A DNA stretch of 64,000 bases, taken from assembly GCA_965217585.1 (NCBI GenBank), contig OZ244561.1:2976001-3040000 (forward strand), given 5' to 3'. Numbering within the stretch: the first letter of the stretch is position 1; every line of letters begins with the position of its first letter. This DNA is from Candidatus Latescibacterota bacterium (GTDB lineage: Bacteria; Latescibacterota; UBA2968; UBA8231). The notes beneath the pieces are model-generated. The model did no database searches. It was not told where the DNA came from and saw only the letters and a list, made by a program, of their open reading frames with translations. A program made the translations under genes and the position numbers. Below are positions 14,633-31,746 of the stretch, piece by piece.

Positions 14633-14825
14633 GCTGCCTCCGGTCTGGGTCTCGTCATCCAAGGCGACGGGGATGCGGGTGTTGACCGCTTGGGCGTCGT
14701 GCGGCTGCTAAAAGAGTCGATAGCTTAATAGACTGTCAAGGTAAGCTACAGTTCTGGGAGCCGTATTTACAGGGGCTATGGCGAAGGAAGATTGCGGCGC
14801 GATCGTAAAGTAGAGTCTTATCTAG

Positions 14826-14948
14826 GGCATCCGCGACGGCCTCTCCAACGAGGTGGTGGACAACCCGGTCGAAATGGTGGGACGCGGCGATCTGCTGTTG
14901 TGCGTGCAGCGGCAGAGCGCGTCCGGGCAGATCGAGCCGCTGAATTAG
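14826..14948 (+). pseudogene. duplicated, diverged 3' end of thiN
   Basis: Reads GIRDGLSNEVVDNPVEMVGRGDLLLCVQRQSASGQIEPLN*, versus thiN 13544-13669 GVREGISNEVVDNPVEIRVGRGDLLLCVQRERASGQIELLD*. Confidence 0.9.
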
Positions 14949-15607
14949 TCGCTGTCCCAAGCCAGCGATAGCTGAATCCCAACCTGCCCGGTCCCCAATT
15001 CCAAGCGCGGCGCGATCTCCACTCCCTGCTCCTGCTTTTCGTCGCCCAACGCGAGCAACTGCCACCCAGCGAGGGCAAAGGCCGCCGCAGTCATCCAGCT
15101 CATCTGGCTTTGGGTGTCGCGGCTGTTGGCGCGGTCCAAAAAGCGCTCGGCTTCTTGCGGCGTGCTGGCCTTTTGGTAGCGCCGATAAGCGTCGTCGCCC
15201 TGCTGGCGAAAGTCCCAGCTTTTGACGAGCAGTATCGCGCTCCCGCTGCAAAGGGCCCAGCCCCAAGCGCGGCGCGACGTCATCCAGCCACGATCTGCGC
15301 CCCTTACCGACCATGCCACCGCCCCTAAACCCATCGCCCCCATCACCACCGCCCGCGTGTCGAATCGTCGGCGCTCGTCGTAGAAGATCTGCGCGTCGCT
15401 GCTGGACTCTGTCCGCTCGTAGCGCTCGTCGGCCCGGTTGGCTTCCCGCCGCGCCTGATAGGCTTCGCTGAGCAGCCAGCCGCCGGCACCCAGCGCGATA
15501 TAGCTGGCTACTTTGCGCGAGAGGCGCGGACCATCCGCTCGCGCCTCTCCGAGCGACGCCAGCGTCAGGATGCAGGCCAGTGTTAGAATGCTCCGTCTGT
15601 TGTTCAC
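14945..15607 (-). CDS. hypothetical membrane protein with two internal TM-helix repeats (DUF5683-like)
   Basis: Signal peptide; two similar units (TM, A..Y..Y...S..A..F.D.....DT, TM); GTGA overlap with the TolC-family gene stop. Confidence 0.7.
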   Translation of the reverse strand: MNNRRSILTLACILTLASLGEARADGPRLSRKVASYIALGAGGWLLSEAYQARREANRADERYERTESSSDAQIFYDERRRFDTRAVVMGAMGLGAVAWSVRGADRGWMTSRRAWGWALCSGSAILLVKSWDFRQQGDDAYRRYQKASTPQEAERFLDRANSRDTQSQMSWMTAAAFALAGWQLLALGDEKQEQGVEIAPRLELGTGQVGIQLSLAWDSD

Positions 15608-16983
15608 CGCAGGTCTCCACGCCCTCTGGCGGCGACGGGTTTCCCCACCGCTTGGTCGAGCTGGGCTAGCTGGATGTGGTAGTTGAAAATGGCCTGGACT
15701 AAGTCGTTGCGCGCCGCAAAAAGGCTCGCTTGCGCTTGGAGCCGCTCTAGCTGCGTTCCGGTGGACAAAGCATAGCGCTCCTGCGCCAGCTTGTAGCTTT
15801 CCTCGGCAGCGCTGACCGCGATCTGGTTGGCCTCAATGCTGCGCCGATATAGCTCGATATTGAGGAAGGCTCTTTTAATATCCAGTGCCACCTGCCGCTT
15901 AGCTTGGTCGAAGTCTTCCATGCGCTGGCGGTAGTTCAGCTTTTGCGACTTGATGGAATTCTGGGTGCTCAAGCGGTTGAATAACGGCAGCCCCAGGCTC
16001 ACGCTGAACGAGTAGCCGTAGTTTTTCAAAAAGAGATCTTCCGGCCCCGCAAACGTCTCGTCGGCCCGCAGTCGCCAGTTGTAGCCGGTGCTCATGCTCA
16101 CGGTCGGGTGCAGCAACTCGTAGCGGGTCCCGCGCAGGTCCTCCTCGGCTTGCAGCAATAAAAACTCCTGCGACCGCAAGTCCGGGCGGTGCTCCAGCGC
16201 CAAGGCCAAGGCTTCCTCGTAGCTCAGCGCGAGCGGTACCATCGCAAATTCCTCCTCGACCGGCACAATCGGTTCGTAGGTCCGCAAGCCCATGGCAAAG
16301 GCCAAGTCGGCACCAGTCACCGCGACGCTGTTTTCGCGGTCGATTAGGTTCGCCCGTGCGCTGGCCAACGCGGCCCGCTCCGTCAGCACATCCGACAGGG
16401 GCACCGAGCGGACCTCGAAGAGCGTCTCGGCCCGGCGCAGGCTCTCCTCTGAGACCCGCACCTGCTCGGTCTGTACCTTCATCAGTTCAATAGCCTGCAA
16501 TAAGCTGAAGTATCCCTGCTTGACCTCAAAGACTACTTGCTGCTGGCTCGTACTCAGGTCCATCTCGGCCGCCTTGTGCCCCAGTTTGCTCGACGCTAGG
16601 GCGGTCCAGTTGCCGCGATTGTACAGGTTCATACTGAAGCCGGTACCCAGCGACTGCGAGCCGCTGGAGGTGCTCTCGCCGAGGGTAGAGGTGACCTCGC
16701 CGGTGGCTGGATCGACAAAGGATCCCTCGCGCGGCCCGGAGACGCTGCGCGACATCCCGTAGGAGGCGCTGATCGATGGTAGAAAGGCATTGCGAGCGTT
16801 CCCGATTTGGATCGCCGCGGCTTCGATATTGGAGCGGCCCTGGATGACCGCGGCGCTCTGCTCTAGGGCGATGGCGATGCAGTCGTCCATGCTCAAGCGG
16901 AGCGCCGCTGGCTCTGCTGCGCCGCTGGGGCGCGTCAGGACCCCCACCACCAGCCAGCAGAAAACGGTGTGTTTACTTTTCAC
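15604..16983 (-). CDS. TolC family outer membrane efflux protein
   Basis: LSMDDCIAIALEQS, FLPSISAS, VKQGYFSLL, ALEHRPDL, LPLF, A.ESYKLAQERY..G; GTG start overlaps the upstream stop. Confidence 0.9.
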   Translation of the reverse strand: MKSKHTVFCWLVVGVLTRPSGAAEPAALRLSMDDCIAIALEQSAAVIQGRSNIEAAAIQIGNARNAFLPSISASYGMSRSVSGPREGSFVDPATGEVTSTLGESTSSGSQSLGTGFSMNLYNRGNWTALASSKLGHKAAEMDLSTSQQQVVFEVKQGYFSLLQAIELMKVQTEQVRVSEESLRRAETLFEVRSVPLSDVLTERAALASARANLIDRENSVAVTGADLAFAMGLRTYEPIVPVEEEFAMVPLALSYEEALALALEHRPDLRSQEFLLLQAEEDLRGTRYELLHPTVSMSTGYNWRLRADETFAGPEDLFLKNYGYSFSVSLGLPLFNRLSTQNSIKSQKLNYRQRMEDFDQAKRQVALDIKRAFLNIELYRRSIEANQIAVSAAEESYKLAQERYALSTGTQLERLQAQASLFAARNDLVQAIFNYHIQLAQLDQAVGKPVAARGRGDLR

Positions 16984-17699
16984 GAGAGCAGCCTTTCTCG
17001 CTGCGCCATCTGCCGCAGCCCCGAAAAGAGCAAGAGCGCACCGCCGAGCACCAGCGTCGCGCGGTTGAGCGCGACCATCTCGGCCCACACCGCATCGTCT
17101 AGGCCCAGCGGCAGGCTAAAGGGATTTAAGAAGAGAAAGTAAGCGGTCTCCGCCAGCGACTCGGCGCTCAGCAATACCGCGACCAGTACTCCCAGCGAAA
17201 GCATCCCGGCCGTATTGCTGCTCTTGCAGAGCACCGAAAAGAAGAAGGTCAGATTGGCGATCAGAAACGCCGGTGCGAACGCATTGAGTCCGCCCAGCGC
17301 GAACGGAAATTCGGCGAAGAGGAAATAGGCCGCCGCACTCATGCCCAGCAGGGTCGCCGCCAATAGCAGGTAAACGGCCACCATCCGCAGCGCCCAGATC
17401 CCGTAGTGCGAGGTGGAAGTGCTAAAGAGCGCCTCCAGCGTCCGGCGGTCGCGCTCGCCGGCCACCAGATCCATCGCTAGGTAAATCGCCAAGACCGCGC
17501 CGGGGATCTCCACCAGCACGTAGGGGGCCTGCCCGGCGCTGAACCCCTCGTCCGGCCGGAACACCGCCAGTGCGTAGAGCACTCCGTAGTATGTGGCGAT
17601 ACCCAAAACCATGAGCAGCAGCTTGCGGTGAAAGACGATCCGCGCACTGAGCCAGCACTGGGCGACTAAGCTGGCAAACAGGGTGGTCCAAGTCAGCAC
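16980..17699 (-). CDS. ABC-2 type transporter permease
   Basis: About six TM helices, cytoplasmic GERDRRTLEALFSTS motif, NPF near the C-terminus. Confidence 0.8.
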   Translation of the reverse strand: MLTWTTLFASLVAQCWLSARIVFHRKLLLMVLGIATYYGVLYALAVFRPDEGFSAGQAPYVLVEIPGAVLAIYLAMDLVAGERDRRTLEALFSTSTSHYGIWALRMVAVYLLLAATLLGMSAAAYFLFAEFPFALGGLNAFAPAFLIANLTFFFSVLCKSSNTAGMLSLGVLVAVLLSAESLAETAYFLFLNPFSLPLGLDDAVWAEMVALNRATLVLGGALLLFSGLRQMAQRERLLS

Positions 17700-20600
17700 G
17701 AGGGCACGTTCTCCCGTCTCAACACATAGATGTAGGCGTCCTCCAGCGTCGGCTCGACGGGCACGGCCGCCAGCCCCGGCACGGCGTCCGCAGCCAGAAA
17801 CCGCACGCGAATGCCGGCGGGTGCGCGCAAGTGCGAGATCACGTTGACCTGCTCGCCGATCCGGGATAGCTCCTCTTCGGCGACGACCGCCTCCCACGCA
17901 TGGCCTTGCGCCAGATCGCGCATGGCCTGCGGCGTGCCCTCGTAGAGGATGCGGCCGGCATTGAGCACTGCGAGGCGGTTGCAGCTACCGGAAATATCCT
18001 CGACGATGTGGGTCGAGAAAAGGACGATCCGCTCCTGACTGATCCGCGCCAACAGGTTGCGGAAGCGAATCCGCTCCACCGGATCTAGGCCCGCGGTCGG
18101 CTCGTCAACGACGATGATCTGCGGCAGATGCAGCAGGGTCTGCGCGATCCCCACGCGCTGCTTCATGCCGCCGGAAAACGAGCCGATCAGGTCGTCTTGC
18201 CGCCCGTCGAGATTGACCTGTTCGAGGCTGGCACCGACCCGGGCGCGGCGCAGGGCCGGGTCGCGGAATCCCTCCAGCAGGGCGCGATACTCTAGATACT
18301 GATAGGCCGTCAGGTGCTCGTAGAGGCCGAAGTGCTGGGGCAAATAGCCGATCACCCCCTGCACTGGGCCGCGGCGGGTGACATTGACGCCGTCAAAGGC
18401 CACCGATCCCGAGCTTGGCTCCAGCACTTGCGATATGATCCGCATCAGCGTCGTCTTGCCGGCCCCGTTGGGGCCGAGCAGGCCGAACATGCCGCGCCCG
18501 ATCTCCAAGTTGACCCCATAGAGGGCTTGGTATTGCGGCCTTTCCACGCCGATCAGGGGCAGGGCCGCCGCCCCGCGATACGCCCTGCGCACCAGCCACG
18601 CCAGCCGACCTGCCAGCGCCGCCGGATCCACCTCGCCGCGGCGCACCCGGTCGGCCAACAGACGCGCCCCCTGATAGCCCAGCCACACCGCCAGCGAGGC
18701 GACCGTCAGCGAAGGCAGTGCCAAGCGTTGATGTACATAGCCAACCAATAGCAGCGGCACCGCCCATTGCGCCAGCGCGTGCGCCCCCGCGCCCAGACCA
18801 AGCAAAGCCCCCTGCCGCAGCACGTGGGCCACCAAGCCCCACGTCGCCAGCGAGAGCAGGTAGAGCCAGAGCGCGTCCGCAAAGTAGGTGTGTAGAAAGC
18901 CGAGGAGCACCAACAGCGGCAGCTTCCAGCTCAAGCCGTCCTTGATCGCTTTGCGATCTACCGGGTCAATACCTTGAGTCCGCAGTCTTGAGTCGCGGCG
19001 GTCGAAGCGCGTCCACTCCCGGCGGAAGCGCCCGGGGGCACCGTAGATCTTGGTCAGGGTTTGCAGGCGGATCGAATGCACCGCCGGCACCTCGTGCCGC
19101 GCCGCCCGGGCGCGGTAGATCCGCAGGGCAAGCGCGGCCACTCCGAGCAGCAAAAACCACAGCGGCAGCGCCAAGAGCACCGGCCAGAACAGGCTCGCGG
19201 ACTCCATATACAACGCGACCACAGCCGCCGCCGCGACCACAGTCGCCAATCCCACGCCGACGCGGCCGATCCCCCTGAGCCACGCCCGCACCTGATCCAG
19301 CCCCATATAGGCCACCGGCACGAAGATCAGCGTCGAGACCATCGACACCGCCAGCCCCCCCAAGACGGTGATGGCGAAGGGCGGCCAGACCTCGTAGTCG
19401 CCGCCGAAGTCGAGCGCCAAAGGCATCACGCCCAACAGGGTCGTCGCCGAGGTCATCAGGATCGGCCGCACCCTGGAGCGAGCGGCCGCCAGCACCGCCC
19501 GCTCGCGGCGGCAGCCTTCCCGCTCGCGGAGCGTGCCAATGGCGTCGATGAGGATAATGCCGTTGTTGACGGCAATGCCGATCAACACGATAAAGCCCAG
19601 CAGAGCCATCGGCCCCGCCTGCGAGCTTAGCCCGGTGCCCGTCAGCATCAGCGCCCAGCACGAGCCAATCGCCGCGGTCGGCAGGGTGCAAAAGATCAGC
19701 AGCGGCGAGGCGAACGATTCAAAGAGCGAGGCCAGCACCATGTAGGTCAGCACCGCCGCGATCCCCATCATCCAGTAGTAGATCGCATCCGTTGCGACCT
19801 CGGCGATCTCGATGGTGTAGTCGCCGGGCAGCACCAAGTCTTGGACCACTGCCCGCACTTGGTCCCGCGCCGCGTCGAGCAGGGGCTGCGAGTCGAGGAT
19901 TTCGTCTGTGAACTGATAGGAGACCACCACGCGCCGCGCTTGGTCGGTGCGCAGGATACTATTGCGCCCCTCGTCGGTGCGCACCTTGGCCAGCTCCGCA
20001 AGCGGCACATACTCACCCGTACTGGTCAGCACCGGAATGGCCCCAACCCCGGCGCGCCCGGGCCCATCGGCCTCTGGGTCTGCGGTCGGCCGCACCTCGA
20101 TGGGGATCTCGCTGCCGTCGGCCTTGAGGAAATCCGTCTGTGCTGCGAAGCCTTCTGGATTGGCGTTGGCTATCGCGCTCAGGACGGTGTTGACGCGCAG
20201 GTCGTGGTCGAAAAGCGCCAGCGGACGGGGAATCACCTGGATCTCGGGGCCGCTGCGCTGGAGGTCGGGCCGCACGCTGTTGGCGTCGATTTCCTCCAAC
20301 TCTTCGAGCCGATAGGACAAATCGTCGGCGATCATCTGCAACACCGCGAAGTCGTACCCCTTGATCAGCGCCGTCTCTGAGGTGGCCCCCGCCTGCAAGT
20401 TGAAACCCCCGGTCCCCCCGGTCCCCCCGGTCCCCCCCCCGCGTCCGCCACCCCGTCCCCTGCCGCCGCCGAAACTGCTAGCCTGCGGTTCGTAGCCGAT
20501 CAGGGCACCCTGAATTTCCTGCAACTCGCCGTCGAGCTGGTCCTTCAATTCCTCGGCCGACACCCGCTCGGGCCGCTCGTCGCGGTCGAGGAGCATCACC

Positions 20601-22396
20601 GTGACGCTGCCCTGCCCCTCCTGGACGCTGGTCGTAAACCGCTCAATGCCCGGCAGTACTTGCACCGCGTCCTCAATCTGTCGCATCACCTCGTCTGTCG
20701 CATCGAGGGTCGCGCCGTCGGAGAGACTCGCGTACACCGAAAACCGAGTCTCCGCGGCGATGACTTCCTGTTGCAGCAGGAAAAAGAACGCGGCCACCAA
20801 CGTCGCCAGCAGCACCAGGAACACGCCGCAAGCCACTGCGCCCCGATGGCGCAAACTGGCCTTGAGGAACAGCGTGTACCTCCCCATTAGCCTTCCCGTG
20901 CCCAAAGGTGCCGATGCCTGACGCTCGAGCATCCGCGCCGCCAACGCGGGTACCAGCGACAGGGCCACCAGCAGCGAGGCCAGCAGCGGGAAGGTGATCG
21001 CCAGCGCCAACTCGCGCAGAATGTCCTGGAAGTCGCTCTGGATAAAGACTACCGGCAAAAAGACCAGTGCCGTTGTCGCCGTCGCCGCGATCACTGCCTT
21101 GCTCACTTCCTCCGTGCCGTCGCGCGCCGCCTCTACGGGCGATTTGCCCCGCTCGAAGTGCTTGAAGATGCTCTCCATCACCACGATGCTGTTGTCGGTC
21201 AGCATCCCCATCGCCAGTGCCAGCCCGCAGAGCGAGAGCACGTTGAGCGTTAGATCCGAGGCGTACATCAAGTTGAACGTCGCCAGCAGCGAAGCCGGAA
21301 TCGCCAGTAGCAGGATGGCCACAAAGTGCGCATTGCGCAGAAAGAGGAACAGCACCGCCAACCCCAACACCAGCCCGACCAACGCCGCCTGTTTCAGGGT
21401 GTCGAGCGAGTCCTCCATCAGCGCGGCTTGGTTGTTGGTGACGATCAGCGACACACCCTCGGGCGCGAAGTCGCGGTTGAGCTGGGCGATCGCCGTGGCC
21501 ACTGCATCGGCGACCGCGATCAGGTTGGCCTCGTCCTCTTTCTGGATCAGGATCCCCACCGCCGACTGGCCGTTGACCCGGCTCAAGTCCGTGCGCTGCT
21601 GCAACCCGTAACCCACCTCGGCCACATCCCCCAAGCGCAGCGGGATCGACGCGTCGATGAGGGTCTCGTCAATCTGCCGCAAGTCGCCAAACTGCCCCTG
21701 AAAGCTGACCGGAAAGACTTGGCTGCCGTCGTACACCGCGCCGAGATAGACCCGGGGCTGGTTGGCGTCGGCGAGCGCGTTGCGCAGATCGGCCATCGTC
21801 AACTGGTAGGCTTGCAGGCGCTCCGGCTCGGCGACGATCTCCACCGCGCTTTGCCGACCGCCCAATACCTGGGCGCTGACCACCCCTTCGACCGCGGCCA
21901 GCGCGGGGGCGATATGTTCCTCGGTGTAGTCCCTGAGCCAGTTGAGGTCCGCCTCTGCTGCCAGGACCTGCAATTCCATCACCGTCGCGCTCAGATCGTT
22001 CTCGTCGAAGCGCTGCACCGCGATTTGGGTCCGGGCGGGAAAACTTGGTTGCAGGCGGTCCATCCGGCTCTGCACCTGCAAGAGCGCGAATTTCATATCC
22101 GTGCCCGGCTCGTAGGATATCCGCACATTGCCCCGGTTGAGCGAGGCGGTAGAAGTCATTTCCACCACGCCTTCGAGCTGACTTATTTCCTCCTCGACCG
22201 GCATCACCAACTCGCGCTCGACCTGTTCGGGTGCCATGCCCTGCTGCGCGATCGCGACGAAGATCTCGGGGTACACCACCTCGGGCATCAGCTCCACGGG
22301 CAGGCGGTCGAGCGAGATCAGCCCCAACAGCGAGACCGCGGAGAAAAACATCGCCGTCGTCACTGGGCGGCGGATGGAGAAGGCCGACAAGCTCAC
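17693..22396 (-). CDS. RND (AcrB-like) permease fused to a C-terminal ABC ATPase domain, ~1567 aa
   Basis: SIRRPV N-terminus, TDNSIVV, VNNGII, RVRPILMT; then extra TMs; then GPNGAGKTT, GYLPQ, FSGGMKQR, VDEPTAGLDP, STH, all in one open frame; GTG 22396 overlaps the previous stop. Confidence 0.88.
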   Translation of the reverse strand: MSLSAFSIRRPVTTAMFFSAVSLLGLISLDRLPVELMPEVVYPEIFVAIAQQGMAPEQVERELVMPVEEEISQLEGVVEMTSTASLNRGNVRISYEPGTDMKFALLQVQSRMDRLQPSFPARTQIAVQRFDENDLSATVMELQVLAAEADLNWLRDYTEEHIAPALAAVEGVVSAQVLGGRQSAVEIVAEPERLQAYQLTMADLRNALADANQPRVYLGAVYDGSQVFPVSFQGQFGDLRQIDETLIDASIPLRLGDVAEVGYGLQQRTDLSRVNGQSAVGILIQKEDEANLIAVADAVATAIAQLNRDFAPEGVSLIVTNNQAALMEDSLDTLKQAALVGLVLGLAVLFLFLRNAHFVAILLLAIPASLLATFNLMYASDLTLNVLSLCGLALAMGMLTDNSIVVMESIFKHFERGKSPVEAARDGTEEVSKAVIAATATTALVFLPVVFIQSDFQDILRELALAITFPLLASLLVALSLVPALAARMLERQASAPLGTGRLMGRYTLFLKASLRHRGAVACGVFLVLLATLVAAFFFLLQQEVIAAETRFSVYASLSDGATLDATDEVMRQIEDAVQVLPGIERFTTSVQEGQGSVTVMLLDRDERPERVSAEELKDQLDGELQEIQGALIGYEPQASSFGGGRGRGGGRGGGTGGTGGTGGFNLQAGATSETALIKGYDFAVLQMIADDLSYRLEELEEIDANSVRPDLQRSGPEIQVIPRPLALFDHDLRVNTVLSAIANANPEGFAAQTDFLKADGSEIPIEVRPTADPEADGPGRAGVGAIPVLTSTGEYVPLAELAKVRTDEGRNSILRTDQARRVVVSYQFTDEILDSQPLLDAARDQVRAVVQDLVLPGDYTIEIAEVATDAIYYWMMGIAAVLTYMVLASLFESFASPLLIFCTLPTAAIGSCWALMLTGTGLSSQAGPMALLGFIVLIGIAVNNGIILIDAIGTLREREGCRRERAVLAAARSRVRPILMTSATTLLGVMPLALDFGGDYEVWPPFAITVLGGLAVSMVSTLIFVPVAYMGLDQVRAWLRGIGRVGVGLATVVAAAAVVALYMESASLFWPVLLALPLWFLLLGVAALALRIYRARAARHEVPAVHSIRLQTLTKIYGAPGRFRREWTRFDRRDSRLRTQGIDPVDRKAIKDGLSWKLPLLVLLGFLHTYFADALWLYLLSLATWGLVAHVLRQGALLGLGAGAHALAQWAVPLLLVGYVHQRLALPSLTVASLAVWLGYQGARLLADRVRRGEVDPAALAGRLAWLVRRAYRGAAALPLIGVERPQYQALYGVNLEIGRGMFGLLGPNGAGKTTLMRIISQVLEPSSGSVAFDGVNVTRRGPVQGVIGYLPQHFGLYEHLTAYQYLEYRALLEGFRDPALRRARVGASLEQVNLDGRQDDLIGSFSGGMKQRVGIAQTLLHLPQIIVVDEPTAGLDPVERIRFRNLLARISQERIVLFSTHIVEDISGSCNRLAVLNAGRILYEGTPQAMRDLAQGHAWEAVVAEEELSRIGEQVNVISHLRAPAGIRVRFLAADAVPGLAAVPVEPTLEDAYIYVLRRENVPSC

Positions 22397-25300
22397 CGCA
22401 GCCGCTCCACCGTCTCGTAGGCCACGGGAATGACCACCAGCGTCATCAGCGTCGCGGAAATAAGTCCGCCGATCACCGCAATCGCCATCGGCGCCCGCAA
22501 GGCCGCCCCTTCGCCCACCCCGATTGCCATCGGCGCGAGCGCCAAAATCGTGGTTGCCGTCGTCATCAGGATCGGCCGCAGCCGGTCCTGCGCGCCCTGC
22601 AGCACGGCCGCGCGCACCGTCGGCAACTGCGCCCGTAGCTGGTTGATGCGATCGACCAATACGATAGAGTCGTTGACCGCGATCCCGCCCAGCATGATGA
22701 TGCCGATATAGGCCATTGCGCTCAGCGGCTCGCCCAGCCCCCAGAAGGCCCACACCACGCCGACGCCAGCCAGCGGCACGGTCAGCATCACGGTAAAGGG
22801 GTGCAGCAGCGACTCAAAAAGCGAGGCCATCACCATGTACACCAGCACCACCGAGAGCAGCAGCGCGAACTGCAAGTCGGCAAAGGACTCCTGTCGCTCG
22901 CGCTCCTCGCCGCCGATGGCGATCCGATAACCACGGGGCAGGGCCATGCTATTGACGACCTGCTCGACCTGCCCGATGGCCTCGCCCAACACCGCGCCTT
23001 CGACCAGATAACCCGCCACCCGCCCGACCCGGCGCTGGTCCTCGCGCAAAATCTCGCGCGGCCCTTCGACAAGTATGGGATCCGACAAATCGCCCAGAGC
23101 CAGAATCGCCCCATCGGGCGCATCAATCCGCAACTGCGGCAGCTCGCGCAAGTCGAAGCGCGCAAAACCGACGCGGATGTCGCGCGAGCGTTGGTCTTTG
23201 GACAACTCGCCGATTACCTCGCCCGACAGCCGGCGCTCCAGCGCCTGCACGATGGTCGCGACGGTCAGCCCGCTGGCGACGACCGCGTCCTCGCGCAGCC
23301 GCAGGTCGATCTCAGGTTGGCCGCCTTGGAAGTTCGAAGTGACGTTGTACACGCTCGGCAGCTCCTCCAAGCGGGCGGCGAGATCGGCGCACAGGCGGCG
23401 CAACACTTCCACCTCGTCGCCAATAATCTCCACTTGGACCGGGGCCGTCCGCTCGCCCAGCACTCCTTCGAGCGCGGTCTCGTGTAGCTGGTATTGCACG
23501 TCTAGTTCGGGGATTTGCGCCAATTGCGCGTCAACGACCTCGACCAGTTGCGGCAGGTTGCGACTGGTCTGCTGGGCCAGCGCGACCGACAGCGTGGCGC
23601 GGTTGGGTCCGGTAGGGTCGCCGATGTTGGCCAGCCGCGCCGGGTCCACGCCCGCCCGGGCGTACACTCCGGCCACATCGTCGCCGCCTACCTCGCCGAT
23701 GATCTCCCCCACCCGCTTGGCCACCCGATCGGTCAGCTCCAGCCGCGACCCTTGCGCCAGTGACAACTCCACGTGGAAAAGCCCTTGGTCTTCGCGCGGG
23801 ATAAACTCGGTGGGGATTGCGCGGGCGACGTAGGCCGTGCCCGCGCCCGTTGCGGCCACCAGCAACAAAACCACTCCCTTGTGGTCGAGCACCGCGTTGA
23901 GCAAAGCGCGGAAGCGCAACCAGCGCTGCTCGGTTGTCGCCCCGCCGCGCCCGCGCAAAAAACGCGAGGTTAGCATCGGCACGGTCATCATCGCCACCGC
24001 CAGTGACGAGACGAGCGAAAAAGCCACGGTCCAGGCTTGGTCCTTAAACAGTTCGCTGGTCAGCCCTTGCAGGTAAACGATCGGCAGGAAAACCGACACG
24101 GTCGTCAGCGTCGAGGCCGTAATCGCCACCCCGACCTCGCTGGCTCCCTTTGTCGAAGCTTGGCGCGCGTCTTCGCCCCGCTCGAGGTGGCGGTAGATAT
24201 TCTCAATGACCACGATCGCGTTATCGACCAGCATCCCCGCCCCTAGCGCCAAGCCGCCGAGGGTCATGATATTGAGCGTCAGATCCTCGAAATACATCAG
24301 GGTAAAGGTCGCTAGAATTGAAATCGGAATCGCCAGGCCGATCACCAAAGTCGCCGTCCACGAGCGCAAGAAAAACAGCAATACCCCCACCGCCAACACC
24401 GCCCCGTGCAGCGCCGCCTCTTTGACCTCGGCTACGGCCTCCTCGATAAAGCGCGCTTGGTTTTCAACCACTGCAAAGCGCAACTCGGGCAAGTCTTGGT
24501 CGAGCTCGCCGATGGATTCGAGCACCCGGTTGATGACCTGTACCGTATTGCTACCGGCCTCCTTGTAGAGCGCCAAGCCGATGCACTCGACTCCGTCGAG
24601 CCGCACGATCGTCTCCCGTTCCGCGTACTCCAGCGCCACCCGTCCCACTTCGCGCACGTAAACCGGCACCTGCAACCCCGCCTCGACGCCTGCCCCCTGC
24701 CGCGCCCCGACGATCACATTGCGCACGTCCGCTAGGTCTTTGAGCCGCCCCAGCCCCTTGACCTGGTACGATTGCTGCGCCTCGCGCAAGGTCCCCCCGG
24801 ACACGTCCTCATTGGCCGAGGTAATCGCCGCGATGACTTGGTCGGCGTCCTGCCCAAAGGCTTCGAGCAGGTACGGATCCAACGTCACCCGGATTTCTTT
24901 TTCCGCATCTCCTTCGATGTCTGCCGAGGCCACCCCGGCGAGTGCTTCCAGCTTGGGCTTGACCACGGTCTCGACCGCGCCCAACAGCTCGTCGAGGTCG
25001 GCCAACTCCGTCGCCGAGACCGCGATCCGCATCACCGGCAGCGCCTGCGGGTCCTCCTGAATGACATCGAGCGTTTCAATATCCTCGTCGGTGGCGTACA
25101 CCCCCATCTTCTTCTGCACGTCGATCAGGGCAAAATCCATATCCGCTTCCCAATCGAACTCGGCCACCACCACGGACTGCCCTGAGCGGGTGATCGAATA
25201 GACCCGAGCGACTCCGCTGATCGTGCTGATGTCGCGCTCCAGCCGCCGCGTATATTGCTCTTCCACCTCCTGCGGCGCCTTGCCGGGCACCTGCAAGTCA

Positions 25301-25440
25301 ACTGTGATGACCGGCGTGTGCATGTTGGGCAGCAGGTCGGTCCCCAATTTGCTTAGGGAGATCGCCCCCAACAGCGCCACCGCGAGGGTCAGCATCAACA
25401 CGGTGACGGGATAGCGGGTGGAAAACTCAGGTAGCGACAT
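22393..25440 (-). CDS. RND (AcrB/AcrD/AcrF family) efflux permease
   Basis: FSTRYPV, LVDNAIVVIENI, VNDSIVLVD, RLRPILMTT, PMAIAVIGGL. Confidence 0.93.
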   Translation of the reverse strand: MSLPEFSTRYPVTVLMLTLAVALLGAISLSKLGTDLLPNMHTPVITVDLQVPGKAPQEVEEQYTRRLERDISTISGVARVYSITRSGQSVVVAEFDWEADMDFALIDVQKKMGVYATDEDIETLDVIQEDPQALPVMRIAVSATELADLDELLGAVETVVKPKLEALAGVASADIEGDAEKEIRVTLDPYLLEAFGQDADQVIAAITSANEDVSGGTLREAQQSYQVKGLGRLKDLADVRNVIVGARQGAGVEAGLQVPVYVREVGRVALEYAERETIVRLDGVECIGLALYKEAGSNTVQVINRVLESIGELDQDLPELRFAVVENQARFIEEAVAEVKEAALHGAVLAVGVLLFFLRSWTATLVIGLAIPISILATFTLMYFEDLTLNIMTLGGLALGAGMLVDNAIVVIENIYRHLERGEDARQASTKGASEVGVAITASTLTTVSVFLPIVYLQGLTSELFKDQAWTVAFSLVSSLAVAMMTVPMLTSRFLRGRGGATTEQRWLRFRALLNAVLDHKGVVLLLVAATGAGTAYVARAIPTEFIPREDQGLFHVELSLAQGSRLELTDRVAKRVGEIIGEVGGDDVAGVYARAGVDPARLANIGDPTGPNRATLSVALAQQTSRNLPQLVEVVDAQLAQIPELDVQYQLHETALEGVLGERTAPVQVEIIGDEVEVLRRLCADLAARLEELPSVYNVTSNFQGGQPEIDLRLREDAVVASGLTVATIVQALERRLSGEVIGELSKDQRSRDIRVGFARFDLRELPQLRIDAPDGAILALGDLSDPILVEGPREILREDQRRVGRVAGYLVEGAVLGEAIGQVEQVVNSMALPRGYRIAIGGEERERQESFADLQFALLLSVVLVYMVMASLFESLLHPFTVMLTVPLAGVGVVWAFWGLGEPLSAMAYIGIIMLGGIAVNDSIVLVDRINQLRAQLPTVRAAVLQGAQDRLRPILMTTATTILALAPMAIGVGEGAALRAPMAIAVIGGLISATLMTLVVIPVAYETVERLR

Positions 25441-25450
25441 AATGCGAGTA

Positions 25451-26548
25451 CTATCTCCCCGGCCCGCCCCGACCACCTGCCCCCCTAGCCTCTCCGGTCC
25501 CCGTTACACTGACCCGCGTCCGCGACCGCAGGGTCTCGTAGTTGCTCGTAATCAGCCGCTCCCCCTCCTCCACGCCGCGCAGCACCTCCACGAACGTTTC
25601 GTCCTCTAGCCCGGTCTCAATTTCCCGCATCTGCGCCCGTGCGCTTTCTTCGACGAATACGACCTCGCGATTCCTCCTCACTAGCACCAACTCGCGCGGT
25701 ACCAGCACCACGTCGGCGTGCGACTCGACCACGATCTCGGCCTTGACGAACATCCCTGGCCGCAGCAAGTGCTCGGGGTTGTCTATCGCCGCCACCGCGC
25801 GAAAGGTCCGCGTCGCGGCATCCACCACCGGGTCAACCGCGACGATGCGGCCGGCGAACACCTCGTCCGGGTAGGAGTAATCGACCGCCCGCACGGGCTG
25901 ATCCAGCGCGATGTGGCGGATTTGCGAGTTGGGAATCTGCAAGTCGAGCAGCACCGCGCTGTAATCGACGATGCGGCAGATCTGGATGTTCGCCTCGACC
26001 AGCGTCTGCTCGCTGGCGTCGGTGAACTCGCTGAGCACCCCGGAGATCGGGGCGGTAATTGCGGTCTTGCCGATCTGGACCAAGGCGTCGTCGTAGTCCG
26101 ACTGCGCGTCGGCCAAATCCTTGCGCGCCGCTTCGACATCGAACTGGGTCACCAAGCCGCGCTCGACTAGGACTTCTTGTTCGGCGAGGGTTTGGCGCGC
26201 GTTCTGCACGGCCAGCTTGCGCGCCTCCAGCCGGGCACCGACCACCAGTTCCTCGTTGTCGAGGCGGGCGAGCACTTGGCCCTGCTGCACGGCCATCCCC
26301 TCGGTCGGCTTGCGCCCGTCGCCTAGTTGGACCAGCGACAGGAACCCCCGCGTCTCGGTGACCACCACTGCTTCCTGCACTGACCGCAGGGTGCCGGTGG
26401 AGGTAACGACGGACTCGATGGTCCCCAACCCCACCGGCTGCACGGTGACCGGGACCGTCAAATCGGCCGTCTGCTGGACGGTCTCGCTTTCGCAGCCGAT
26501 TAGCAACAGGAGCGCCCATGCCGAGGCGCATAGGATTGTATATCGCAT
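25451..26548 (-). CDS. RND periplasmic adaptor (MFP) lipoprotein
   Basis: Lipobox LIGC; V..GQVLARLD, ITAPISGV, P.VD.ATRTF, LRPGMF; GAGG upstream of ATG. Confidence 0.92.
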   Translation of the reverse strand: MRYTILCASAWALLLLIGCESETVQQTADLTVPVTVQPVGLGTIESVVTSTGTLRSVQEAVVVTETRGFLSLVQLGDGRKPTEGMAVQQGQVLARLDNEELVVGARLEARKLAVQNARQTLAEQEVLVERGLVTQFDVEAARKDLADAQSDYDDALVQIGKTAITAPISGVLSEFTDASEQTLVEANIQICRIVDYSAVLLDLQIPNSQIRHIALDQPVRAVDYSYPDEVFAGRIVAVDPVVDAATRTFRAVAAIDNPEHLLRPGMFVKAEIVVESHADVVLVPRELVLVRRNREVVFVEESARAQMREIETGLEDETFVEVLRGVEEGERLITSNYETLRSRTRVSVTGTGEARGAGGRGGPGR

Positions 26549-26563
26549 ATTTACCTCAGAGCA

Positions 26564-26588
26564 GGGCAAGCACAAGGGCTGCCCCGAC
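26564..26588 (-). repeat. degenerate REP-like palindrome
   Basis: Minus strand GTCGGGGCAGCCCTTGTGCTTGCCC resembles the element at 32844-32868. Confidence 0.55.
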
Positions 26589-26635
26589 AAGATTTGTTGG
26601 TATAGATGCTTTAGGATGTGCCCTACGGATATGTC

Positions 26636-29600
26636 TCAAAATACCTTGTTCAACCAACGGGTAATAGCGCTCGGTTGCTGCCGCCCGCCACCGCGACCGC
26701 CGCGACCGCCGCGACCGCCGCGACCGCGCCAATTGCCGAAAGACCCCACATCTTCCTCGTAGGCGGCCTCTGGGTTGTCTGGGTCAATCCAGCGCCAGCG
26801 CACTGCATCGGCGTAGAGTTGGCCGCTGGCTTGGTCGGACAGCTCGACCCGCGCCCTTTCGCCTTCGGCAAAGTGAAATCGCCCCAGCAAATTCCAGCCG
26901 CCTTGCAGCGTCTCGCTCTTGAGCGCGAGAGTATCTACCACACCCCCATGCGCGACCGCGAGCGAAAACGATTCGGCCAAGCTCAACCCAAAGCGCCGAC
27001 TAAACCGCGACGGCACGAAATAGTACGCCACGTCGTAGAAGCCCGCCTTGGGCAGCGTGGTCGTCCACACCGCCGGCTGCGCCCCATCGCCGGGCGGCTT
27101 CCAGCGGAAATTGGTCTCGTAGCGGCCGAAGGCAAGAGGCAGCTCCTGCACCTGCCAGTTGTCGCCTCTAAGCCCGGGGCGCAGGTAGCGTTGCACCCGG
27201 CGGATCGGCATGGAAAAGCCCTCGTCGTCGTTGTCGACTACGATCTCCGAGAAAAAGTTTTCCTCGTCTTCTACGACTCGCACGTAGGATTTGGGATAGC
27301 CGGCAAAGACCTGCTCGGGGATGCTCAAGGCGGCGACAATCGGCCGCTGGTTTTTGGCCAAAAACGGCTCGACCATCACCCGGAACGGCCGTGCAAAAAG
27401 CACCATGGACACCTCGACCTCCTGCCCGCCTTCAATGGCAATCGCCTTTGCGGCTTGGTCCTCGCGCCCAAGGGCCTGCACCTCGACAAAGCCGCGGCCC
27501 GGCTCGCCGTTTTTGATCCGCACGATCACCTGGTACACCACTGCGCCCCAGCCGTCGTCCATCTTCTTGGCCGTCGCCCGGGTCAGGGTATAGCCCGGCA
27601 CGTGGGTTCCGTAGATCCAGTCGTGGACTAGCTGCTGCACGTCGATCTTCTGGCGGCCAACTTCCCCGTCGGGGACGACCGCATCCTCAAAATCGGCAAA
27701 GGAGACCTGCTGGTACTTGTTGTTCTCGTCAAAGGTGCCGACCGCTTCGATAAATTGGTCGGCCCCCAGCACCGACTTGACGACCCGGAAGATGGACAGG
27801 CTCTTGGCTTTGAGGATCGACCGGTAGAGGGCGGGTTCGGCGGCTTTGTCCATTTCCGCCAGCGAGTGCTGCTGCATCTCTACCACCAGCGTGTCCCAAG
27901 CCGGGCCGGTGTTAGCGGCGGGCCGGGGGGCACCGCCGGGGCCGCCGCCCCGAGAGCGCATCATGCTGCTGATCATCCGCGCCATTCCGCCGCTCATCCG
28001 GCCGCCCCAGCGGCTCGAAAACATCGCCATCCGCAAGTCGGCGCTGACGTCTTCCTGCATGTAGAGCGGCAACCCGCGCGCGACTAGGTCGGCGTGCTCG
28101 CCGCCGAAGCCGCGGTCAAAGGACCATAGCTGCACCAGTGGGCTGCGAAACAGGCCGCTACGCCCTCCTTCGGGACTCAAGAAATCCTGGAAGAGTGCCC
28201 CGACCAGCACGTCTTTTTTGGCTTGCGCCTCGTCTTGGTCGCCGCGCCGCCGCGCCATCCGCGCATCAAAGTCGCGCTGGAAGCGGTGGCCCATCAACAC
28301 GTCCTCCTCAATCATCAGCACCCCTGGCTGCACTAGGCCACCGCGCTCCTCCCAGCCCTCGTAGTACCACTGCACCAAGAAGGGCACCTCCACCAGCGAG
28401 AGCCTCGGGTACGAGTATTTCAGCCCCGTCTCCTGCTCCATCGCGTCGAAAAGCTGGTCGATGGTCTCTACTACTTTGTCGGGAGCGTCGGCGAAAAAGC
28501 GCACCGGGCGCAGGTGGGCCGGATGGACATAGAGGGCGAACTCGACCTCGCGGACCGTGGTCTTATAGACCTCGTAGCGGCCGGCGTGTAGAGAAAAAAG
28601 CGGCACCGGATAATCCACCTGCCACTGCGTGCGGACGCGCCCGCCTTGGTCCTCTTGGGCTATGGGTCGCCCCTGCGTGACCACCTCCAGCCCAGCGGGC
28701 ACCGACACCGCGATCTCTGCCGTGGCAAACGAAGGCGGCGGCGGCACTTGCGGGTGGTAGGCTACCCCGGCGATGGGATACCAGCCGCTGCGTGGGGGCA
28801 AAAAGACCGATTCGCCGCGGATCCAGGCCGTCAGGTCGCCCTTGATAAACGGCCACTTGTTCTTGTGCAGCCGCACCTCGTCGCGCAGCAGATCAAAGCC
28901 TTGGCGGTCGATGTCGCCGTCGTAGGCCAGCGTCAAGGTCTGCTCAGCCCCGGCGGCCAGCGGCGCGGCGACCCGGATCACGGCCGCACCCCGCTTCCAC
29001 CCCAACTCGTTGCCGGCCGCATCCTGCACCGACCGCAGCGTCAAGCCGGGGTTGAGCGCAAAAATCAGCGTATCCAGCGCGCCGTCGTGGTCGTTGTACA
29101 ATCGCAACTGGGCCTTGGCCGCCAGCGGCGCATCCTCGCCAGCCAACGCGACCTCCAGCCGGTAGTGCGCCACCTGCGGTACCGGCGCGTCTGCGTAGCG
29201 ATATTGCTCGGCGAGCAGGCGCTGGCGATAGGCTTGGTTGGCTTGGTCTTGGGCGTCGATGTGCTGATACAGCCCCACCGCCGCCAACAGCCCCACCCCG
29301 GCCATGCCCCGGCCGACCCAAGCCCATCCCAGCGACTGGGACAGGCGCGGATAGCGCTCTATCGACAGGCCAAAAAAGAACAGCCCGAGGGCTAAGTAAA
29401 AAAGCCGCTGGTCGATCACCCGCGATATATCGCCCAAGCCGATCATGTCCGAGTAGAAAAGCGGGGCGAAAAAGGCCCCAAAGTCCCACCAGCCGCCGTA
29501 GCCCTCGCCGAGGTAAAACAACACCGCGAGCGCGTAGGCCATAGTCAGCAGGGCGACAGCCGTCTGGTGCCGCAACACAGCGCCTAAAAAGAAGGTCAGG

Positions 29601-30094
29601 GCCGACATGTACAGCAGCGCCGGCAGGGTCATCACCAGCAGGTACAGCAGATAGGGCCGCAGCGTGAACGGCGCGTCGAGCAGGCTGATCTTGGCCGCTT
29701 GGACGGCCACCGTCAAAACCAGCACCGCCAAGCTCAAGGTCAGCAGTGCCCCGAGGACCCCGAGGTACTTGCCGATGACCAGTTCGGCGGTCGCTATCGG
29801 CCGCCCGGCGATCACCTCGTGGACCCCGGCCCGCTCGTCGGCGGCGCGGAAGTCGCCGACGATAAAGGCGATCACGACCGCCTGTACATAGCTATAGACG
29901 TAAAAGGGGACAAACGCCCCCATGCCCAGCGCCGAGCTGAACTCGATCCCCCGCGCTTCGAGCACGGCTAAGCCGACGCCAATCAGCAGCGGCAGCGCGA
30001 CCCCGATGCTGCCGAGGATGCGGAAGCGGGTGGTCCGCAAGAGCAGCATCCGCTCGTAGCGGGCCACGCCGAGGATGTTGTGGACGGCGCGCAT
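26636..30094 (-). CDS. ABC-2 permease fused to an M1-aminopeptidase-like domain (no HExxH) and a C-terminal golvesin/xanthan-lyase-like beta-sandwich
   Basis: N-terminal TMs with DERAGVHEVIAGRP...GKYLG; M1-like YRLEV, WYP, YPRLSLVEVP, K....VLG.DQF; C-terminal IVVDNDD.GF...W...G.YDV...GWNLLGRF...ADAVRW. Confidence 0.78.
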   Translation of the reverse strand: MRAVHNILGVARYERMLLLRTTRFRILGSIGVALPLLIGVGLAVLEARGIEFSSALGMGAFVPFYVYSYVQAVVIAFIVGDFRAADERAGVHEVIAGRPIATAELVIGKYLGVLGALLTLSLAVLVLTVAVQAAKISLLDAPFTLRPYLLYLLVMTLPALLYMSALTFFLGAVLRHQTAVALLTMAYALAVLFYLGEGYGGWWDFGAFFAPLFYSDMIGLGDISRVIDQRLFYLALGLFFFGLSIERYPRLSQSLGWAWVGRGMAGVGLLAAVGLYQHIDAQDQANQAYRQRLLAEQYRYADAPVPQVAHYRLEVALAGEDAPLAAKAQLRLYNDHDGALDTLIFALNPGLTLRSVQDAAGNELGWKRGAAVIRVAAPLAAGAEQTLTLAYDGDIDRQGFDLLRDEVRLHKNKWPFIKGDLTAWIRGESVFLPPRSGWYPIAGVAYHPQVPPPPSFATAEIAVSVPAGLEVVTQGRPIAQEDQGGRVRTQWQVDYPVPLFSLHAGRYEVYKTTVREVEFALYVHPAHLRPVRFFADAPDKVVETIDQLFDAMEQETGLKYSYPRLSLVEVPFLVQWYYEGWEERGGLVQPGVLMIEEDVLMGHRFQRDFDARMARRRGDQDEAQAKKDVLVGALFQDFLSPEGGRSGLFRSPLVQLWSFDRGFGGEHADLVARGLPLYMQEDVSADLRMAMFSSRWGGRMSGGMARMISSMMRSRGGGPGGAPRPAANTGPAWDTLVVEMQQHSLAEMDKAAEPALYRSILKAKSLSIFRVVKSVLGADQFIEAVGTFDENNKYQQVSFADFEDAVVPDGEVGRQKIDVQQLVHDWIYGTHVPGYTLTRATAKKMDDGWGAVVYQVIVRIKNGEPGRGFVEVQALGREDQAAKAIAIEGGQEVEVSMVLFARPFRVMVEPFLAKNQRPIVAALSIPEQVFAGYPKSYVRVVEDEENFFSEIVVDNDDEGFSMPIRRVQRYLRPGLRGDNWQVQELPLAFGRYETNFRWKPPGDGAQPAVWTTTLPKAGFYDVAYYFVPSRFSRRFGLSLAESFSLAVAHGGVVDTLALKSETLQGGWNLLGRFHFAEGERARVELSDQASGQLYADAVRWRWIDPDNPEAAYEEDVGSFGNWRGRGGRGGRGGRGGGRQQPSAITRWLNKVF

Positions 30095-30099
30095 GGCGT

Positions 30100-30972
30100 T
30101 TAGGCCGATCCCATAAAATAGATATAGGCGTCTTCGAGGCTGGGCGCGGTCGGCACGGCACCCGGCGGCGGTGCTGCGTCGCCGACGATCCTGAGCGCCA
30201 TGCCGACGCCGTCGGCGCTGATGTTGACCACGCTAAAGCGGCTGGCGATGGCCTCAAACCCGTCGTCGTCGGTCTGCAAAAGCCAGGTTTTGCCCTCGGC
30301 CTTGGCGACGAAGTCCGCGGGTGCGCCGTGGAAGCGCAGCCGTCCCTGATGCAATACGGCCAAGTCCTCGCAGGTGCTCGAAATATCGCCGACGATGTGG
30401 GTCGAGATGAGAATGGTGCGGCTGGCGCTCAGCCTCCCCAAAATGGCCCGGAAGCGGATCCGCTCCTCTGGGTCAAGCCCGACGGTCGGCTCATCGACGA
30501 TGATAAACTCAGGGTCGGCCAAAATCACCTGCGCGATGCCAAGCCGCCGCCGCATCCCCCCCGAAAAGGTGCCGGTCTTGCGCTCGCGCACCTCGTAGAG
30601 ACCCACGTCCTCCAAAGCTTGGGCGACCCTTTCGCGGCGCTGCCGCTGGCCGTGCAACCCGCCGAGCCGCCCCATGTAGTCGAGGAATTCCCAAGCCGAA
30701 AGCTGCGGGTACGCGCCGAAGTGCTGCGGCAAGTAGCCGAGCCGCCGCCGCACCTCGGCGCGGTCCTTTTGCAAGTCCCAGCCGTCGATCTCCACCGCGC
30801 CCGCGCTGGGCACCATCTGGGTGGAGAGAATTTTGATCAGCGTGGTCTTACCCGCGCCGTTGGGTCCTAAGAGACCAAACGTCCCGTGGCGGATCTCCAA
30901 GCTCAGGTCAGCAAGCGCCGGAACCTCGTTGCGGCCATAGGTCTTGCTCAGGTTTTGGATGCGTATTCTCAA
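30100..30972 (-). CDS. ABC transporter ATP-binding protein
   Basis: IQNLSKTY, GPNGAGKTT, GYLPQ, FSGGMRRR, VDEPTVGLDP, STH, PSLEDAY. Confidence 0.95.
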   Translation of the reverse strand: MRIRIQNLSKTYGRNEVPALADLSLEIRHGTFGLLGPNGAGKTTLIKILSTQMVPSAGAVEIDGWDLQKDRAEVRRRLGYLPQHFGAYPQLSAWEFLDYMGRLGGLHGQRQRRERVAQALEDVGLYEVRERKTGTFSGGMRRRLGIAQVILADPEFIIVDEPTVGLDPEERIRFRAILGRLSASRTILISTHIVGDISSTCEDLAVLHQGRLRFHGAPADFVAKAEGKTWLLQTDDDGFEAIASRFSVVNISADGVGMALRIVGDAAPPPGAVPTAPSLEDAYIYFMGSA

Positions 30973-31430: not shown

Positions 31431-31470
31431 ACAATCCTCCACGTAAAAGGTTGGGATGAAACTACAGACA

Positions 31471-31499
31471 TTAGACACCCCGTCCCTCCGATCCATTCC
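31471..31499 (-). promoter_or_regulatory. ECF (sigmaE-like) promoter of the ABC-RND operon
   Basis: Minus strand GGAAT-N18-GTCTAA, about 40 nt upstream of the first ATG. Confidence 0.55.
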
Positions 31500-31583
31500 C
31501 GCCTTTCGCCCGATAGTGGGTGCTGATGGATAAAGGGCCAGTAAGGCGGAGAACGCAAGAAGGCCCTCTTGCGCGGGACGGAT

Positions 31584-31712: not shown

Positions 31713-31746
31713 GTAGGTTGTCTGCTGCATAGAAAGGAGAGCCACC

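Follow-up and report, generated by a model that had tools for sequence, protein, structure and literature searches.

The locus described here raises the question of whether two kinds of export machinery can be parts of one polypeptide. Pumps of the resistance-nodulation-division (RND) type are proton-driven and take up their substrates from the periplasm or the outer leaflet, and ATP-binding cassette (ABC) exporters are ATP-driven and take up theirs from the cytoplasm or the inner leaflet. Both are treated as separate classes of transporters, which cooperate only loosely. In the genome of a Candidatus Latescibacterota bacterium (assembly GCA_965217585.1, contig OZ244561.1), the original prediction suggested that an AcrB-like RND permease, called RND2 in the following, continues in frame into an ABC ATPase and that a single chain may combine ATP-driven modules with modules related to the proton motive force. 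The gene is located on the minus strand of a stretch of 64,000 nucleotides (contig positions 2,976,001 to 3,040,000), which is called the window throughout and to which coordinates refer unless stated otherwise. Is this fusion genuine, how are its parts linked, and what might it do?

Architecture of the fused gene

Between 17693 and 22753 the minus strand of the window contains 1686 codons without a stop. The GTG codon at 22396 is the likely start of the fusion gene, since it overlaps the TGA of the upstream gene (RND1, a second RND permease) as GTGA and since a GGAG motif is located 9 nt upstream of it. From this codon, one uninterrupted frame encodes 1567 amino acids plus stop. The parts of the gene are given below; residue numbers are those of the fusion protein.

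17693-22396, minus strand: fusion gene (RND2, two helices, ATPase strand beta1, four-helix insert, ATPase core, the inner boundaries being model-based), defined by the open frame, the Pfam families ACR_tran and ABC_tran and the GTGA overlap with RND1
19304-22387, minus strand: RND2 permease domain, residues 4-1031 (ACR_tran)
20405-20470, minus strand: Gly/Arg-rich loop in the periplasmic part of RND2, residues 643-664 (GGGRGRGGGRGGGTGGTGGTGG), from alignment and contig variants
19094-19264, minus strand: two predicted extra helices after transmembrane helix (TM) 12 of RND2, residues 1045-1066 and 1070-1101 (AlphaFold2 helices 21-42 and 46-77)
19040-19075, minus strand: predicted ATPase strand beta1 with A-loop Tyr (SIRLQTLTKIYG, residues 1108-1119; model strand 84-94)
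18533-19039, minus strand: predicted insert of about 170 amino acids (residues 1120-1288) that separates beta1 from beta2 and consists of a basic amphipathic helix, four further helices and a connector helix
17696-18532, minus strand: ATPase core from beta2 to the C-terminus, residues 1289-1567 (ABC_tran, motifs, fold match)

That a full AcrB-like chain runs without a stop into a nucleotide-binding domain (NBD) was borne out by the open frame and by both Pfam profiles. The model of the AcrB/AcrD/AcrF-type family, ACR_tran, is matched over its full length by the RND part, whose residues 4-1031 cover positions 2-1018 of the 1021 in the profile (628.5 bits with a cut-off of 28, E 2.4e-188), and ABC_tran matches residues 1295-1435 (E 1.5e-26). 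The best solved relative of RND2 is MdtB (9lyq_B, E 5.8e-83), and pairwise alignment of RND2 with RND1 indicated 32% identity. No curated NCBIfam subfamily was reached by the RND part: the best model was NF033617 (RND_permease_2, 525.9 bits vs a cut-off of 1250), and the equivalog models of MdtC (346.1 bits vs 1774) and MdtB (323.4 vs 1584) were missed as well. The family models nearest to the fused ATPase are GldA (173.4 bits vs a cut-off of 402.6) and DrrA (160.6 vs 312.45), neither of which was reached; by fold, its nearest relatives are TM_1403, TM0544, NosF and the ATPases of the ABCA/ABCG type. Judged by these scores, both modules come from known superfamilies and neither reaches any curated subfamily or equivalog cut-off.

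The ATPase carries the following motifs (fusion residues):

Walker A, GPNGAGKT, 1308-1315
Q-loop, YLPQ, 1351-1354
Signature, FSGGMKQ, 1407-1413
Walker B, IIVVDE, 1427-1432
D-loop, AGLD, 1435-1438
H-loop, STH, 1461-1463

All six of them, including the Walker B glutamate, are invariant in 40 aligned family members, which are 38-87% identical to the query. The motifs of the NBD are intact, as originally described. Its reported likeness to a free ATPase of the same locus was also confirmed. This paralogue without an insert (30100-30972, minus strand, ABC_tran) shares 46% identity with the fused ATPase over 275 amino acids (E 3e-81).

The connection between the two modules was inspected in an AlphaFold2 model of residues 1025-1567 (40-row alignment, mean pLDDT 84.6; model residue plus 1024 gives the fusion residue). 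In this model the end of TM12 of the RND part is followed by two long helices, a beta strand, a basic helix, four further helices, a short helix and the strand preceding Walker A. The block of two extra helices was modelled with pLDDT values of 84-92, and hydropathy peaks at 1042-1094. The beta strand, modelled as SIRLQTLTKIY (1108-1118), corresponds to beta1 of an ABC ATPase: in the family alignment its L, T and K never vary and Y and G hardly do, and the free ATPase, which begins with MRIRIQNLSKTYGRNEVPALADLSLEI, has the matching stretch RIRIQNLSKTYG at its start. The tyrosine at the end of the strand is the residue known as the 'A-loop', which usually stacks on adenine.

The model has an ABC ATPase fold, with the chain interrupted by about 170 residues between beta1 and beta2. 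When solved ATPase chains are aligned with it, their first or second residue falls on model residue 81-84, and the helices that follow have no counterpart in them. For 1vpl, 233 of the 238 residues were aligned across model residues 83-536 (rmsd 1.7, Z 27.0) with the insert left out, and for 4yer_B 264 residues were aligned (rmsd 3.4, Z 28.3); the fold of the core is thus nearest to TM_1403 and TM0544 (Z 27-28). Since the solved chains and the free paralogue begin at the beta1 strand, the insert is placed in the beta1-beta2 hairpin, and in the model the ATPase is split by it. The helices of the insert (model residues 99-116, 124-147, 151-177, 179-201, 204-228 and 242-253) comprise, in fusion numbering, a strongly basic helix (1123-1140), four helices (1148-1171, 1175-1201, 1203-1225 and 1228-1252) and a short helix (1266-1277). 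The original prediction had described the link as two extra transmembrane helices, and this count has to be revised to six extra helices in all, two before beta1 and four in the insert that splits the ATPase. The mean hydropathy of the four insert helices is 0.45-1.36, only one of the four passes the threshold of 1.6, their loops are very short and their flanks are Arg-rich. These properties fit helical hairpins located at or in the membrane.

When the insert alone was compared with 1.84 billion representative proteins, 18 matches were obtained at E <= 0.001. Judged by their ids, lengths and matched positions, 17 of them look like members or fragments of the family (four sequences were inspected), and the remaining one (P0136, 2072 amino acids, E 7.5e-4) is a repeat-rich protein unlike the fusion family. 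No other ABC ATPase among these representatives was found to contain the insert, but a single hydrophobic sequence is a weak query and this result does not prove its absence. A separate model of linker and insert (pLDDT 87.3) was compared with 48,161 chains, and no informative fold match was found among them. The best hit was 6p7v_B (Z 8.7, rmsd 5.8, 125 residues aligned) and the others were generic helical hairpins; the Z of 8.7 is within the noise range stated for helical models, and a known fold was thus neither assigned nor excluded.

Two details of the gene may be added here. The Gly/Arg-rich loop of RND2 is missing from RND1 in the pairwise alignment, the family consensus is also Gly-rich at this position, and the length of the loop varies in metagenome contigs by in-frame losses of 9 nt at 20409-20429, which are the sole indels listed in these contigs. 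An inverted repeat with a 14-bp stem (19215-19246, minus strand) contains the codons for TVVAAAAVV of the first extra helix. It had been flagged as terminator-like by a consensus scan, but we rejected this assignment in view of its poor T tail, its coding content and the number of such repeats in the region, which is only modestly raised (23 vs 15.1 in shuffled sequences, sd 3.2).

Spread of the fusion among bacteria

To trace the fusion in other organisms, we searched a collection of 5.8 billion proteins with the C-terminal 568 residues, considering proteins of 861-2743 amino acids. Among the 120 best matches listed, all carry PF00873 together with PF00005; 110 are 1455-1646 amino acids long and ten have 881-1239 residues. 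Their identity to the searched C-terminal part ranges from 88% down to 39%, and the source names include Gemmatimonadota, Latescibacterota, Acidobacteriota, KSB1 and Calditrichaeota. The nearest named relatives among them carry a Latescibacterota label (81% identity) and a Gemmatimonadetes label (77%), the labels of these metagenome-assembled genomes being in conflict, and the JGI label of the relatives reads 'AcrB / ABC-type ATPase subunit'. In the ESM Atlas at least six clusters of about 1565 amino acids were found (with, for instance, 143, 139 and 189 members), in which both domains are present in 99-100% of the members.

At closer phylogenetic range, 15 of 31 related genomes match the fusion with E = 0. 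Of the 19 genomes from the genus of the window, 6 have such a match (in one of them it is truncated at a contig end), as have all 9 from a second genus but none of the 3 from two further genera. The fusion is free of internal stops in 14 other related genomes; a lone TGA that was flagged in the matches of G015 and G017 is the natural stop at the end of the gene. In a scan of genome contigs with generic ATPase motifs, 74 of the 80 loci listed match the ATPase part only, and L009-L014 were inspected. Five of these are Bacteroidales contigs (L010-L014), which encode single frames of 1572-1601 amino acids; they are 32-35% identical to the query over the whole length between the beginning of the RND part and the end of the ATPase.

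Relatives are thus overwhelmingly encoded by single genes. A search for short proteins (<861 amino acids) containing residues 1035-1300 yielded 12 matches with scattered lengths (115-646 amino acids), several of them on megabase contigs, and no consistent split form was found among these 12. We rejected them as evidence for a split architecture and took them as fragments or broken genes. One of them (P0122, 501 amino acids) begins within the second extra helix and is probably a truncated protein. In metagenome contigs from four runs the fusion, its junction included, showed neither a stop nor a frameshift, but these runs may include the source sample and do not count as independent support. 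Exact contig pieces cover 19037-19291, 18689-18939 and 18131-18425, the first of which spans the RND end, the two extra helices and strand beta1. Contig joints and loose ends cluster at the Walker A region, where depth is in the thousands; at 90% likeness they stem from ATPases of other organisms and are uninformative.

An artificial joining of two genes by misassembly, frameshift or loss of a stop is therefore practically ruled out, and so is a decaying gene. The possible inclusion of the source sample in the metagenome runs is the only formal weakness from which this explanation might profit, and no other support for it was found. It is opposed by the stop-free fusions of the related genomes, by the full-length fusions among 110 of the 120 best database matches and in the Bacteroidales loci, by the exact contigs across the junction (19037-19291) and by the position of the modelled strand beta1 upstream of the insert. 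Because beta1 precedes the insert, a simple stop could never have separated two complete genes at this site. An artefact is already refuted by homologues, related genomes and contigs, and on the strength of these sequence comparisons the fusion is genuine. Its conservation in many lineages indicates that it is under selection.

The operon, its conserved cassette and known export systems

The fusion gene is part of an operon on the minus strand, which reads, in this order, small open reading frame (ORF), free ATPase, 1152-amino-acid permease, adaptor, RND1, fusion, 239-amino-acid permease and TolC-like factor. Apart from the fusion and the free ATPase, its main genes are:

26636-30094, minus strand: ABC-2-like permease of 1152 amino acids with M1-peptidase-like and Golvesin_C regions (Pfam)
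25451-26590, minus strand: periplasmic adaptor (membrane fusion protein), 379 amino acids (HlyD_D23; TIGR01730 RND_mfp, 176.6 bits, above the cut-off of 94.9)
22393-25476, minus strand: RND1, partner RND permease, 1027 amino acids (ACR_tran, E 1.6e-223; MdtB 9lyq_B, E 9.6e-91)
16980-17699, minus strand: putative ABC-2 type permease, 239 amino acids, whose GTG start overlaps the fusion stop by 8 nt
15604-17088, minus strand: TolC-like outer membrane factor, ORF overlapping the permease end (OEP, E 7.5e-65; TIGR01844, E 1.9e-50, below cut-off)

With an adaptor and an outer membrane factor, the locus contains the genes of a tripartite RND system. Four of its genes (adaptor, RND1, fusion, 239-amino-acid permease) form a cassette, whose gene order is identical in every one of the 11 loci compared, namely those of the window, of five related genomes and of the five Bacteroidales contigs. 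The 1152-amino-acid permease is present beside the cassette in all five related genomes (G001, G016, G029, G023, G019), and all of these except G019 also have the free ATPase upstream of the adaptor. In the five Bacteroidales loci neither of the two was found beside the cassette. The 1152-amino-acid protein has 6-7 hydrophobic segments in its first 200 residues, followed by a weak M1-peptidase-like region, in which no HEXXH motif was found, and a Golvesin_C domain. We assume that it pairs with the free ATPase.

The small permease scored 26.9 bits with ABC2_membrane_2 (cut-off 27.2) and 18.4 bits with ABC2_membrane_3 (cut-off 31.6). It has 114 relatives, some of which carry precomputed PF12679 or PF12698 assignments, and the JGI label is that of NosY-type permeases. 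For at least 21 of these 114 relatives the longest contig is equal in size to that of a fusion relative, which is compatible with a shared contig. When the complex of this permease with the C-terminal module of the fusion was predicted, an ipSAE of 0.63 was obtained, compared with 0.00 for the best of three controls. The mark applied here is reached by 58 of 80 solved complexes and by 2 of 110 mismatched pairs; the runs agreed in at least 93% of the contacts, and the pLDDT of the partner was at least 74. In the predicted interface the Q-loop and the helical subdomain of the ATPase face the N-terminal helix of the permease and its loop 85-96, which holds the invariant E89, and these contacts would be those of a canonical ABC-2 exporter. 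As similar type V ABC complexes have been solved, the docking result may reflect likeness rather than binding of this particular pair.

Among known systems, MdtABC-TolC resembles the locus most closely in its RND genes. Here, too, a single adaptor gene has two diverged RND genes in tandem behind it (with 32% identity), and the locus also contains a gene for an outer membrane factor; among solved structures, MdtB comes closest to RND1 as well as to RND2. PMC4462101 contains the statement that MdtBC works as a B2C heterotrimer of two unlike RND subunits. In contrast to MdtABC-TolC, RND2 is extended by six extra helices (as modelled) and an ABC ATPase, an ABC-2 permease gene comes next in the operon, its residues Asp-Asn in TM4 and Asn in TM10 differ from Asp-Asp and Lys of MdtB, and its scores are far below the NCBIfam cut-offs of MdtB and MdtC. 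Tandem arrangement is frequent in this genome, where 8 of the 12 RND genes occur in such pairs, the pair of the window included. Of the three other tandem pairs (G000:C1, 1376023-1382447, 2529877-2536391 and 3965334-3972416), none is fused to an ATPase.

ABC-2 or type V exporters with a separate ATPase and a six-helix permease include DrrAB, GldAFG, NosFY and YbhFSR. The small permease shares with them a predicted N-terminal interface helix and a coupling loop, but here the ATPase is fused behind an RND permease and, in the model, split by about 170 residues after beta1, and all its family scores are below cut-off. MacAB-TolC is similar in that a single locus provides an ABC ATPase together with a periplasmic adaptor and a TolC-like duct. 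The permease of MacB consists of four helices and a periplasmic domain. In the locus described here, by contrast, the ATPase follows a 12-helix RND permease and its partner is a small ABC-2 protein without a large periplasmic domain. Statements on fused proteins in the review PMC8277102 concern MacB, in which an ATPase is fused to a membrane domain, and SecDF. For the split ATPase, NBD1 of CFTR may serve for comparison, which carries an insertion between strands 1 and 2. Our predicted insert differs from it by its length (about 170 residues) and by its four long, partly hydrophobic helices; the CFTR segment is a mobile, cytosolic regulatory insertion of about 32 residues. It shows that an additional segment can be tolerated in the antiparallel beta-subdomain of an ABC ATPase (PMC2217481).

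In the literature searched (titles and abstracts, with subscription journals outside the coverage) we found no description of an RND-ATPase fusion. Databases hold hundreds of copies under automatic names, and since these are the only labels given, the family appears to be unstudied. Thus, the sequence family is not new, but neither the fused architecture, taken as a biological object, nor the split ATPase appears to have been described.

Several other ORFs of the window were noted. The first ORF of the operon (30969-31799, minus strand) has no Pfam or NCBIfam match, and only its C-terminal 120-140 amino acids or so (query residues 122-259) are conserved in relatives. This part has a signal-peptide-like start and Gly/Arg-rich stretches at both ends, similar to the RND2 loop, and its product may resemble small periplasmic proteins of the Spy/CpxP/ZraP type. 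Behind the outer membrane factor, an ORF of 294 codons (14736-15620, minus strand) has an Arg/Gly/Ala-rich translation of non-genic look and no family match, and it may not be a real gene. Farther away, 36548-52678 (minus strand) encodes 5376 amino acids with many Calx-beta repeats (12 matched stretches over two scanned halves) next to fibronectin type III and cadherin-like domains; such a giant protein probably belongs to the cell surface or serves in adhesion. This region has a strong negative AT skew. Finally, 32887-33672 (plus strand) encodes an NYN nuclease domain followed by a weak cold-shock match (24.2 bits, below cut-off).

Proton relay and possible modes of action

The canonical proton relay of HAE-1 permeases involves Asp407, Asp408, Lys940 and Arg971 of AcrB. 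When RND2 was aligned with MdtB (9lyq_B), the first Asp of TM4 and the Arg of the RPILMT motif were found to be retained, whereas the second Asp and the Lys position of TM10 are occupied by Asn. This is the pattern that had been reported for RND2 and its partner; RND1 shows the same relay residues, but has an Asp one residue after the Lys position. Neither of the two permeases thus contains the canonical HAE-1 relay. We then surveyed the 12 RND ORFs of the genome (at least 800 amino acids, E < 1e-10). At the position of Lys940 of AcrB, 11 of these genes encode Asn, one Asp and none Lys, and at the position of Asp408 nine encode Asn and one Asp. Since 11 of 12 RND genes share the Asn, the pattern is a trait of the RND subfamily of this organism and not a mark of the fusion. 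We therefore rejected the relay residues as a specific sign of lost proton coupling, as they are the norm among RND genes of this genome without an ATPase, and the reduced relay does not count as a hint of altered energy coupling. In the fusion family the relay Asp, the adjacent Asn, the Asn of TM10 and the Arg of RPILMT are each at least 90% conserved, and the conservation of Asp and Arg suggests that the RND part still moves protons. Of the proposal that one polypeptide combines ATP-driven and proton-related modules, the part that stands is a complete RND permease and a motif-intact ATPase in one conserved chain; the argument from the relay does not.

With modest confidence, we lean towards an ABC-2 exporter that is tethered to a paired-RND tripartite pump and exports in two stages. 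We infer that the products of the cassette form a complex in which RND1 and RND2 would constitute a heteromeric pump, served by one periplasmic adaptor and the TolC-like duct. A complete ABC-2 (type V) exporter would be tied covalently to it, with the C-terminal part of RND2 as ATPase and the 239-amino-acid permease as membrane subunit. In the first stage the ATPase dimer and the permease would spend ATP on moving an amphiphilic or membrane-embedded substrate from the cytoplasm or the inner leaflet to the outer leaflet or the periplasm. There, the adjoining RND subunits would take it up and expel it via adaptor and duct, powered by the proton gradient, so that both energy sources would be used. 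The two extra helices and the four-helix insert may hold the ATPase at the membrane beside the RND part. The two-stage proposal follows the cooperation of inner-membrane pumps with trans-envelope RND efflux, which the former are stated to potentiate in PMC4338810, and the MdtB2C precedent (PMC4462101). Supply of exactly two ATPases per trimer by a 1:2 ratio of RND1 to fusion is speculation by analogy. Several points weigh against this proposal. The symmetry of an RND trimer does not fit that of an ABC dimer, and the 2:1 solution, borrowed from MdtB2C, is a guess. The membrane embedding of the insert is not certain, as only one of its four modelled helices passes the strict hydropathy threshold, and the insert and linker helices are not among the confident contacts of the permease. 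Moreover, the match of this permease to the ABC-2 models of Pfam is just below cut-off, and the second ABC system upstream, which is kept only in class-level relatives, is not explained by the proposal.

The missing contacts between the permease and the linker or insert helices also suit another interpretation, since the confident predicted contacts are confined to the standard ATPase-permease interface. The two modules might be tethered but have separate transport jobs, the fusion securing no more than co-expression, co-localization or stoichiometry, with neither hand-over of substrate nor mechanical coupling. Intact motifs and retained relay residues make both modules look self-sufficient, and we consider such independence a distinctly less probable but serious alternative. 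However, Bacteroidales and Gemmatimonadota-like relatives, at 32-35% identity, have both retained the fusion with its elaborate six-helix link, no consistent split form occurs among the 12 short matches, and the order of the four genes is constant in 11 of 11 loci; such persistence would usually mark a functional complex. The opposite extreme would be an ATPase dimer that drives or gates the cycle of the RND trimer via insert and linker, with the permease mainly as coupling scaffold. A family-specific helical insert that splits the ATPase and adjoins helices continuing from TM12 of RND2 would suit this mechanism, and so would an incomplete AcrB relay (second Asp replaced by Asn, Lys by Asn). 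Nevertheless, we regard it as unlikely. An incomplete relay is usual in this genome without any ATPase (Asn in 11 of 12 genes at the Lys position and in 9 of 12 at the second Asp), members of the fusion family retain the other two residues, Asp and Arg, with at least 90% conservation, and the ATPase is always accompanied by an ABC-2 permease of its own, for which a canonical coupling interface is predicted. Improbable to a similar degree is a dual-fuel pump modelled on MdtB2C, in which RND1 and two fusion proteins would form a heterotrimer, the two ATPases would dimerize with two permeases and the insert would pass ATP-driven motion to the transmembrane domain of the RND part, so that proton flow and ATP hydrolysis would be linked mechanically within a single cycle from the cytoplasm to the outside.

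Whatever its mode of action, the fusion joins the RND and the ABC classes in one polypeptide that is kept across several phyla, and the structural model presents an ABC ATPase whose chain is broken up by a helical insert with a probable association to the membrane. If the modules cooperate, the protein would be a natural two-stage or dual-energy efflux machine and would offer a handle on the passage of substrates from inner-membrane to trans-envelope pumps.

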